From a virus (Duplodnaviria > Heunggongvirae > Uroviricota > Caudoviricetes), in the IMG/VR virus record IMGVR_UViG_2585427758_000001, positions 1-12,420 of that record: a stretch of DNA of 12,420 nt. One strand, given 5' to 3'. The first letter of the stretch is position 1; the number at the start of each line of letters is the position of its first letter. Below, one piece after another: positions 2,800-7,935 of the stretch. Below the pieces are notes generated by a model. The model did no database searches, was not told the DNA's origin, and saw only the letters and a program-made list of their open reading frames with translations. A program made the translations under genes and the position numbers.

Positions 2800-3267
2800 A
2801 TGAACCGTGTTCTGTGTGTGGTGATTATTGTCATGCTGGTGGCCTGTGGTGCGCTTAGTCTGGGGCTGAATCATTACCGTGATAACGCCATTACCTACAA
2901 AGCCCAGCGCGACAAAAATGTCAGAGAACTGAAGCTGGCGAACGCGGCAATTACTGACATGCAGATGCGTCAGCGTGATGTTGCTGCGCTCGATGCAAAA
3001 TACTCGAGGGAATTAGCCGATGCGAGAGCTGAAAATGAAACTCTTCGCGCTGACGTTGCCGCTGGTCGTAAGCGCCTGCGTATCAACGCCACCTGTCCAG
3101 GTCCCGTGCGTGAAGCCACCGGCACCGCCCGCGTGGATAATGCAACCGGCCCCCGACTGGCAGACACCGCTGAACGGGATTATTTCACCCTCAGAGAGCG
3201 GCTGATGACGATGCACAAGCAACTGGAAGGGGCGCAGGAATATATCCGCACTCAGTGCCTGAAATAA
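2800..3267 (+). CDS. Rz: Inner-membrane spanin Rz (i-spanin), 155 aa
   Basis: N-terminal TM anchor ([20 protein letters not shown]), then [17 protein letters not shown]...[16 protein letters not shown], closely matching lambda Rz as recalled. ATG 2800 preceded by GGTGGTGA. The ORF-track GTG at 2716 would add an unsupported leader. Confidence 0.9.
3020..3205 (+). CDS. Rz1: Outer-membrane lipoprotein spanin Rz1 (o-spanin), embedded in the +1 frame of Rz
   Basis: Signal peptide with lipobox LVVSAC, Pro-rich mature part [32 protein letters not shown] matching lambda Rz1 as recalled; wholly inside Rz in another frame. True start may be Met1 (3020) or Met6 (3035). Confidence 0.85.
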
Positions 3268-3484
3268 GTTTTGCTGATGCGCGGTATTGTCGCCGTATCC
3301 CCGCATTAACAGAGACCGCAGCCCGACCGGGAGACTCCTCTGCGCGAGTGTGCGGGGATAATCAAAAACGATACACACCGGGGTTTACCGCGTTAACGGA
3401 GCGCGGCGTTGTCCCCTCATAGTCGCCTGTCCGGTGCGATGGTGGAAGAAACCGGACTACATTGAAAATGATAACCATTATCAT

Positions 3485-3535
3485 TTTTGCGGGTCCTTTC
3501 CGGCGATCCGGGCCGTTACGGGGCGGCGACCTCGC
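3485..3535 (+). other. cos: cos site: cosQ-like region and cosN with the 12-nt cohesive-end sequence GGGCGGCGACCT (3521-3532)
   Basis: Exact lambda cohesive-end sequence at 3521-3532, preceded by GCGGGTCCTTTCCGGCGATCCG...GTTACG resembling the lambda right end and followed by CGCGGGTTTTCGCTATTTATGAAAATTTTCCGG as at the lambda left end (from memory). Confidence 0.85.
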
Positions 3536-3567
3536 GGGTTTTCGCTATTTATGAAAATTTTCCGGGG

Positions 3568-3685
3568 AAAATCATGTCGGTACTTCTCGAACATAACTAT
3601 TTGTTTTTTCTAATATCGAATCCGTAAAAGGTCCGACATGAAAACGCCTAAAAAAGTCATTTTCGGGCACTTTCATGTCGGCCCC
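3568..3685 (+). repeat. cosB: cosB-like terminase small-subunit binding region: three copies of TCATGTCGG (direct 3572-3580, inverted 3633-3641, direct 3673-3681) flanking an AT-rich segment
   Basis: Repeats seen directly. Arrangement direct-inverted-direct at about +52, +113 and +153 from the cohesive-end start mirrors lambda R3-I1-R2-R1, but the repeat sequence differs from the lambda R consensus (CGTTTCC...). AT-rich spacer 3590-3625 is a plausible IHF/bend site (weak match only). Confidence 0.6.
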
Positions 3686-3708
3686 TGTATTTATTGTGAG
3701 ACTGTTTC

Positions 3709-4228
3709 ATGAAGGTTAATAAAAAGAAACTTGCCGAAATTTTCAACGTGGATCCGCGAACGATTGAACGCTGGCAGTCTCAGGGACTCCCTTGTGTCTC
3801 CGGAGGTGGTAAGGGCGTTGAATCTGTATTTGATACCGCCATGGCAATTCAGTGGTATGCGCAGAGGGAAGCTGATATCGAAAATGAAAAACTCCGTAAA
3901 GAGGTTGAGGATTACAGGGCTGCCAGTGAGGCAGATCTCCAGCCTGGGACTATTGAGTACGAACGCCATCGACTTACGCGTGCGCAGGCCGACGCACAGG
4001 AGCTGAAGAATGCCAGAGACTCCGCAGAGGTGGTGGAAACCGCATTCTGTACTTTCGTGCTGTCACGGATCGCAGGTGAAATTGCCAGTATTCTTGACGG
4101 GATCCCTCTCTCGGTACAGCGGCGTTTTCCGGAACTGGAAAACCGACATGTTGATTTCCTGAAACGGGATATCATCAAAGCCATGAACAAAGCAGCCGCG
4201 CTGGATGAACTGATACCGGGGTTGCTGA

Positions 4229-4254
<26 letters not shown>
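3709..4254 (+). CDS. nu1: Terminase small subunit (Nu1-type), 181 aa; N-terminal DNA-binding domain non-lambda (phage 21-like by recollection), C-terminal part lambda-identical
   Basis: Same length and 26-nt overlap with A as lambda Nu1. From about residue 73 ([32 protein letters not shown]...) it matches lambda Nu1 as recalled; residues 1-70 ([29 protein letters not shown]...) are divergent. Confidence 0.9.

Positions 4255-7935
<3,681 letters not shown>

Follow-up and report, generated by a model that had tools for sequence, protein, structure and literature searches.

The cos region of this Escherichia coli prophage raises the question of whether its DNA-packaging module descends from a single phage type or joins the DNA-recognition part of one lineage to the packaging motor of another. 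From the letters of the window (the whole 12.4-kb stretch of DNA analyzed here), a recombinational swap of the cosB repeats together with the DNA-binding domain of the small terminase (TerS, Nu1 in lambda) had been proposed. This proposal was supported by a cassette of the phage 21 type, a lambda-type right flank, the phage Stx1_9793, and a reciprocal chimera. In our reading, to which we assign a probability of about 0.86, a cassette of ~350 bp (3566 to ~3915) comprising cosB (R3, I1, inverted R2, and R1) and codons 1 to ~69 of the small terminase gene came from a phage-21-type lineage; cosQ, the cosN-I2 segment, the rest of TerS, the large terminase gpA, and the head genes belong to the lambda type, and the packaging specificity of phage 21 is predicted to be carried on the lambda motor.

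Layout of the window and its cos region

The window corresponds to the late part of a lambda-like prophage of E. coli, whose features run in the order holin, YdfR-like protein, lysozyme, Rz spanin, cos, small terminase, gpA, W, portal, C/Nu3 protease, D, E, FI, FII, Z, and U. Its head genes resemble those of lambda, all of them being intact open reading frames (ORFs) of lambda length. MINF_9A, the best E. coli match (three pieces, 94% coverage), is shorter than the window by ~640 bp, and we infer that part of this difference lies at 2160–2720. Two small ORFs are found between the lysozyme and spanin genes (2235–2447, phrog_6632; 2428–2700, phrog_3246).

The cos region has the layout of a lambda-like module, with the 12-nt cohesive end GGGCGGCGACCT at cosN (3521–3532, plus strand; bp 1–12 of the mature left end) and cosQ, the packaging-termination subsite (GGGTCCT, 3491–3497, plus strand), ~30 bp upstream. 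The cohesive end had been described as lambda-like and was located at these positions; it is identical to those of lambda and 21. cosQ had likewise been attributed to lambda. Its sequence does match that of lambda, but a lambda origin does not follow, since the same heptamer is present in 21 (where the annotation of M81255 labels it 'R4'), the Stx1 phage, IdasGreatGrand, and PhiR5_1. The 7-bp cosQ is known to be highly conserved (PMC4669245), and because it is shared by lambda, 21, and other relatives, it is no marker of lambda origin. The cosN-I2 block (3515–3565, plus strand), which forms the left junction zone of the cassette, is more informative: it agrees with lambda and with the Stx1 phage at 51/51 positions, and at the four sites within 3538–3564 where 21 differs from lambda, the window is lambda-type at all four.

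Two features of the DNA around cosQ were noted in passing. The tetranucleotide at 3511–3514, in the interval separating cosQ from cosN, is ACAG in lambda, 21, the Stx1 phage, and IdasGreatGrand but GGCC in the window; one other E. coli prophage, JNE151685, also has GGCC. At 3464–3482, 9 bp upstream of cosQ, lies the palindrome GAAAATGATAACCATTATC, which matches the E. coli Fur-box consensus (GATAATGATAATCATTATC) at 17/19 positions; no match as good was obtained in 200 shuffles. Lambda has GTAGATGATAATCATTATC at this position, and 21 has a weaker version of the Fur-box-like sequence. A literature search found no publication connecting Fur with cosQ.

Mosaic structure and breakpoints

The window was aligned with lambda (PV340536) and with the head operon record of phage 21 (M81255). 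The alignments mapped the breakpoints of a mosaic, and the region is not uniformly similar to one phage. From 3566 to ~3900, the identity profile ranges over 46–74% to lambda and 73–94% to 21, and the cassette (3566 to ~3900–3920) is 87–95% identical to 21 and ~55–60% identical to lambda, its overall DNA identity to 21 being ~87%. From ~3946 through the end of gpA, the relation is reversed (92–100% to lambda and 36–86% to 21), and the right flank from ~3922 onward (TerS residues 69–181 and gpA) is 94–100% lambda. Lambda-like sequence had been proposed for the first ~45 bp past the cohesive end, followed by divergence, which fits the lambda identity of 3515–3565 and the departure from 3566 onward.

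A two-breakpoint fit on the sites at which lambda and 21 differ yielded a 21-type block at 3566–3900. Within it, 115 of the 130 sites are 21-type, and outside it, 725/752 are lambda-type (Fisher p ~1e-99). At the right edge, the final 21-type run stops at 3900, the sites at 3903–3920 are mixed, and the lambda-type run is unbroken from 3924. Using PhiR5_1, a close match to the window up to ~3927, the right junction was placed within ~28 bp (3900–3927, plus strand; codons 65–73), just past the DNA-binding domain. It follows the domain boundary, because the domain structures cover residues 1–68 (PDB 1J9I) and 1–54 (PDB 7LWR). The junctions had been anticipated at about 3565 and about 3925, and both estimates were close to the fitted positions (3566 on the left and 3900–3927 on the right).

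With the cassette being 21-type, a uniform relative of lambda was rejected by the alignments. A uniform relative of 21 (Jouyvirus) was rejected as well, given the C-terminal part of TerS (57/114), gpA (419/647 to gp2 of 21), and the lambda-like head region.

The cosB sites

The exact 9-mer TCATGTCGG occurs at 3572–3580 (plus strand), 3633–3641 (minus strand), and 3673–3681 (plus strand), with no other copy in the 12.4-kb window. Three copies within 110 bp are far beyond chance, because only ~0.1 exact matches would be expected in the whole window. These are the direct, inverted, and direct repeats that had been seen to take the place of the lambda R sites.

The 21 reference record M81255 annotates three binding sites for gp1, the small terminase of 21 (R3 at 216–231, R2 at 273–288, and R1 at 316–331), and the IHF site I1 at 238–252. 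The repeats of the window coincide with R3, R2, and R1, i.e., they stand at the R-site positions of 21. The correspondence to the cosB of 21 holds site for site: putative R3 (AATCATGTCGGTACTT, 3570–3585, plus strand) matches its counterpart at 15/16 positions, putative R2 (3628–3643, minus strand; AAGGTCCGACATGAAA when read on the plus strand) at 16/16, and putative R1 (TTTCATGTCGGCCCCT, 3671–3686, plus strand) at 14/16. The putative IHF site I1 lies between R3 and R2 (3592–3606, minus strand) and matches the I1 of 21 at 13/15 positions. An inverted R2 flanked by two direct R sequences, together with an I1 homologue between R3 and R2, makes this a complex cosB.

The IHF consensus WATCAANNNNTTR is matched at 12/13 positions at 3594–3606 on the minus strand. 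As the window contains six matches to this consensus and 6.9 are expected, there is no enrichment; a consensus match alone is not above chance, and the assignment of I1 thus rests on its position and its homology to 21. The interval between I1 and R2 is one base longer than in 21, and this base is missing from some of the O157:H7 copies.

A one-mismatch copy of the R core, ACATGTCGG, is found on the minus strand at 4143–4151, within the lambda-type part of the small terminase gene, and the region 4143–4156 overlaps a one-mismatch match to the IHF consensus. It was considered as a remote 'rR2' of the N15 style and was rejected, as the sequence is lambda-type and lambda has the same one, so that the resemblance is probably due to chance.

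Small and large terminase subunits

The small terminase ORF (3709–4254, plus strand) belongs to the Nu1 family over the whole protein (Pfam Phage_Nu1, 302.6 bits). Its 5′ part (3709–3915, plus strand; residues 1–69) encodes a winged-HTH DNA-binding domain of the 21 type. Residues 1–68 are identical to 21 gp1 at 60/68 positions and to lambda Nu1 at 41/68, and no differences from 21 gp1 occur within residues 8–29, a segment that contains the proposed recognition helix. Among known structures, the domain matches PDB 7LWR (21-type, residues 1–54) and PDB 1J9I (lambda Nu1, residues 1–68); PDB 6HN7 shows residues 1–98 of lambda TerS bound to RppC. No literature on PDB 7LWR was found. The 3′ part (3922–4254, plus strand) encodes the oligomerization and TerL-binding part and is lambda-type, with residues 69–181 matching lambda Nu1 at 109/113 positions and 21 gp1 at 57/114. 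The switch from a non-lambda N-terminus of ~70 residues to a lambda-like protein from about residue 73, which the sequence-only reading had described, is thus seen as a fall and rise in lambda identity (41/68, then 109/113).

The large terminase gpA (4229–6154, plus strand; Pfam GpA_ATPase and GpA_nuclease) is lambda-type, at 631/641 identical residues to lambda gpA and 419/647 to 21 gp2, in agreement with its earlier description as lambda-like. The Nu1-family small subunit gene and the gpA-family large subunit gene overlap at 4229–4254, as expected for a lambda-like module. With 60/68 residues shared with 21, then 109/113 with lambda, and a gpA identical to lambda at 631/641 positions, the small terminase is a chimera of the type known from the laboratory hybrid hy51.

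The lambda-type sequence is interrupted by a divergent patch at the start of gpA (4249–4295, plus strand), where identity to lambda falls to 77–88%, in comparison to at least 97% in the flanks. It changes V8I, N9D, R10I, H13R, F14D, and S21A of gpA (ungapped gpA numbering), along with G181D of Nu1. The patch is common to IdasGreatGrand and 473 E. coli genomes, and IdasGreatGrand is the only one among the phage records that carries it. In the search for a donor, the DNA query matched only IdasGreatGrand, and tblastn returned no protein closer than lambda-type ones at 82–84%. Because the N-terminus of gpA is the TerS-binding region (PMC9026076), it is conceivable that the patch is co-adapted with TerS.

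Predicted packaging specificity

According to Feiss and colleagues (PMC4669245), discrimination between lambda and 21 is set by residues 20 and 24 of TerS, together with bp 56 and 59 of R3, and Glu24 of lambda clashes with the G:C pair at bp 56 of 21. The window has G at bp 56 (3576) and G at bp 59 (3579), as in 21, and its TerS has E20 and S24, also as in 21, in place of the Q20 and E24 of lambda. The sequence determinants of 21 specificity are therefore found together in the window: R sites at the positions of 21, both base pairs, and the recognition helix with both residues. They predict the packaging specificity of phage 21 on a lambda packaging motor and, with it, binding of the TerS domain to these R sites.

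To judge from the homologous lambda and 21 systems (PMC9026076), packaging might proceed as follows. IHF would bend the DNA at I1, and a dimer of the 21-type domains would dock on both sides of the bend, at R3 and R2, assisted by R1. Lambda-type gpA would be held by the C-terminal, lambda-type part of the chimeric TerS and would nick cosN to generate the 12-nt GGGCGGCGACCT ends, and the DNA would be translocated into lambda-type proheads. Termination at the next cos would depend on cosQ, cosN, and I2, and the type of cosB would be irrelevant to it.

Prevalence and viability of the chimera

The cassette (3560–3930) was found at an identity of at least 95% in 568 E. coli records, and the whole chimera (3560–4300) was found at a coverage of at least 80% in 540 of 5,426 complete E. 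coli genomes. The whole chimera accounted for 544 records, compared with the 568 having the cassette, and the remaining ~24 may be truncated. O157:H7 and O103:H2 strains are among the hosts, and the upstream neighbors vary among the loci. Modules that are lambda-type throughout, and others that are 21-type throughout, are abundant as well. In RefSeq, WP_000867489.1 and WP_000867498.1 are annotated just as 'terminase small subunit'; the former is the TerS annotated at a locus 100% identical to the window (L009), and the translation at that locus is identical to the TerS of the window.

The isolated phage IdasGreatGrand (PP925829) shares the chimeric module, with a nucleotide identity of 98.8%, and encodes a TerS protein identical to that of the window, although the upstream context in its late region differs. 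Its existence argues that the chimera supports a viable phage. No literature on IdasGreatGrand was found.

Natural relatives and the reciprocal chimera

The Stx1a-converting phage Stx1_9793 shares both flanks with the window, broadly at 90–97%. Upstream, the identity is 86–97% at 3090–3444 and then 72–97% up to cosN; downstream of 3941, it is 93–100%, except in the gpA patch (4221–4300). Between these shared flanks, Stx1_9793 has lambda-type R sites and a lambda-type TerS N-terminus.

The opposite combination was searched for with a synthetic query in which lambda cosB and codons 1–70 were joined to codons 71 to the end of 21. Full-length matches were present in 2 of the 5,426 complete E. coli genomes. 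In E. coli ECCNB12-2 (NZ_CP033635.1, 601–1293), the small terminase is identical to lambda at 68/68 positions over the domain and then matches 21 at 96/114; lambda-type R sites accompany it, and its cosQ is preceded by 21-like DNA. The junction, QASE|TDLQPGTIDYERY, lies at approximately codons 74–75, a few codons 3′ of that in the window and in the same conserved stretch. The cosN of ECCNB12-2 is a variant (GGGCGTCGACCT).

At all the loci examined, the R-site type agrees with the type of the DNA-binding domain, and the type of the TerS C-terminal part varies independently. Phage PhiR5_1 (PV340545, ~1500–2200) has R-like cores CATGTCA or CATGTCG and the helix IRTIDRWQTQG (D20 and T24), and its TerS C-terminus is neither lambda- nor 21-type (68/114 and 66/114, respectively); by these features, its TerS and cosB may represent another packaging specificity. 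Phage YDC107_1 (CP025712, ~1620) combines lambda-type R sites with a different cohesive end (GGGCGGAAGGCG), which suggests that cosN and cosB types also assort independently.

Alternative explanations and origin of the mosaic

Many E. coli prophages are defective, and the mosaic could in principle be an assembly artefact or a dead remnant with a non-functional cos module. The same junctions recur in 540 independent complete genomes, however, as well as in the plaque-forming IdasGreatGrand, and the head genes of the window are intact ORFs of lambda length. An assembly artefact was rejected on account of the 540 genomes, and we regard this explanation as a whole as very improbable. Specificity determinants are expected targets of diversifying selection, so that the cassette might also have diverged in place from lambda with no recombination. 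Such divergence was refuted by the alignments and has practically no chance of being correct: coding and non-coding DNA alike are ~55–60% identical to lambda yet 87–95% identical to 21, both edges are sharp against flanks of 97–100% lambda identity, and the sister phage Stx1_9793 has the same flanks with a lambda cassette. The module might also have a third packaging specificity that is related to, but not cross-compatible with, that of 21, arising through substitutions in the wing and differences in the R-site flanks. The domain differs from 21 gp1 at 8/68 residues, four of which are in or near the wing (V30, G32, G34, and V37); the wing residues G32 and G34 are those of lambda. In addition, bp 54 of R3 is A in the window and G in 21, R1 has two flank changes relative to 21, and PhiR5_1 shows that further variants of the CATGTC type exist. 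Against this, residues 8–29 are identical to those of 21, the genetically defined determinants (TerS residues 20 and 24; R3 bp 56 and 59) are 21-type, R2 matches at 16/16 positions, and the 9-bp core is the core of 21. We consider a third specificity improbable, and a sub-specificity shifted relative to 21 would be possible, though unlikely. The non-lambda part represents no new type but a variant of the specificity module of phage 21, which is well studied.

Homologous or relaxed-homologous recombination is the most likely source of the 21-type cassette on a lambda-type motor. On the left, the crossover would have occurred in the identical 51-bp cosN-I2 block, which adjoins the cos double-strand break that stimulates recombination, and on the right, in the conserved coding stretch just past the DNA-binding domain. 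Experiments of De Paepe et al. (PMC3945230) demonstrated exchanges, both cos-proximal and relaxed homologous ones, between lambda and the Nu1 homologues of prophages. Three-taxon comparisons cannot be rooted, and the polarity could be the reverse, with the 21-type cassette and lambda motor as the older combination and with Stx1_9793-like lambda types or 21 itself as the recombinants. The chimera is very common (540 genomes), and no non-recombinant parent combining this exact 21-like variant (identity of at least 95% over 3560–3930) with a C-terminus of the 21 type was found among the phage records, in which only IdasGreatGrand, the same chimera, exceeded 90%. The pure lambda-type and 21-type modules are also abundant, which speaks against the reverse order, although not decisively, and we regard it as a serious alternative that is on the unlikely side. 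If it were true, the history alone would change, and the identity and working of the module would stay the same. A broader scenario is offered only tentatively and seems to us rather unlikely as a whole: the cassette of cosB and domain would be exchanged recurrently in both directions within the same short stretch past the domain and would be kept polymorphic by selection, either against sharing a packaging specificity with co-resident lambda-like prophages or for escape from PICI Rpp proteins that bind this domain, and the gpA patch (4249–4295) would then have co-adapted at the TerS-TerL interface instead of being a hitch-hiker.

Comparison with known systems

The co-variation of domain and sites had been likened to that of lambda/21 hybrids, and the architecture is indeed that of hy51, which was built in the laboratory decades ago (PMC4669245, PMC9026076). 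The lambda-21 hybrid hy51 of Frackman, Siegele and Feiss (1985), which served as the 21-specific helper in PMC4669245, has the cosB of 21, a TerS with the N-terminus (HTH) of 21 and the C-terminus of lambda Nu1, and the gpA of lambda (PMC4669245, PMC9026076); it is viable and 21-specific (PMC4669245; PMC9026076). The window differs from it in several respects. The 21 segment of hy51 is described as ~600 bp or the 5′ half of the gene, whereas that of the window stops ~395–405 bp from the left end at codons 65–73; the cosN-I2 segment of the window is lambda-type at 4/4 differing sites in 3538–3564; the donor was a ~87%-identical relative of 21 and not 21 itself; and the chimera of the window is natural and widespread.

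Phage 21 (M81255, X02501; Jouyvirus) shares the R3-I1-R2-R1 layout, the CATGTCGG core, spacing within 1 bp, and the recognition helix. Unlike 21, the window is lambda-type past codon ~70 (50% identity in the Nu1 C-terminus, and 65% between gpA and gp2), and its DNA upstream of cosQ is unrelated. With lambda, the window shares identical cosQ, cosN, and I2 sequences, Nu1 residues 69–181 (96%), gpA (98%), and similar head genes; it differs in having R sites of the CATGTCGG type where lambda has CGTTTCC, and in a DNA-binding domain that is 60% identical. The lambda N15 hybrid hy4 and the TerS chimeras of the P22 family follow the same principle, in which the N-terminal recognition domain and its site are exchangeable and the TerL-binding C-terminus is constant, but they differ from the window in their donor specificities and cosB architectures. 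A literature search found no paper with an explicit description of this natural lambda/21 chimera.

Significance

The principle of a modular small terminase whose domain co-varies with cosB, as well as this particular architecture, is long established, and the sequence is abundant in the databases. The lambda/21 chimera opens no new mechanism and is real but ordinary. It is a natural example of terminase modularity, in which the recognition domain and its sites travel together and the motor-binding part stays with the motor, and the population data (540 genomes with the chimera and two with the reciprocal combination) back the genetics of the lambda/21 hybrids. The packaging specificity of cos-type prophages in pathogenic E. 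coli, including O157:H7, is consequently not assignable from the large terminase or head genes alone, and this assignment matters for predicting cross-packaging, transduction, and the mobilization of PICIs.
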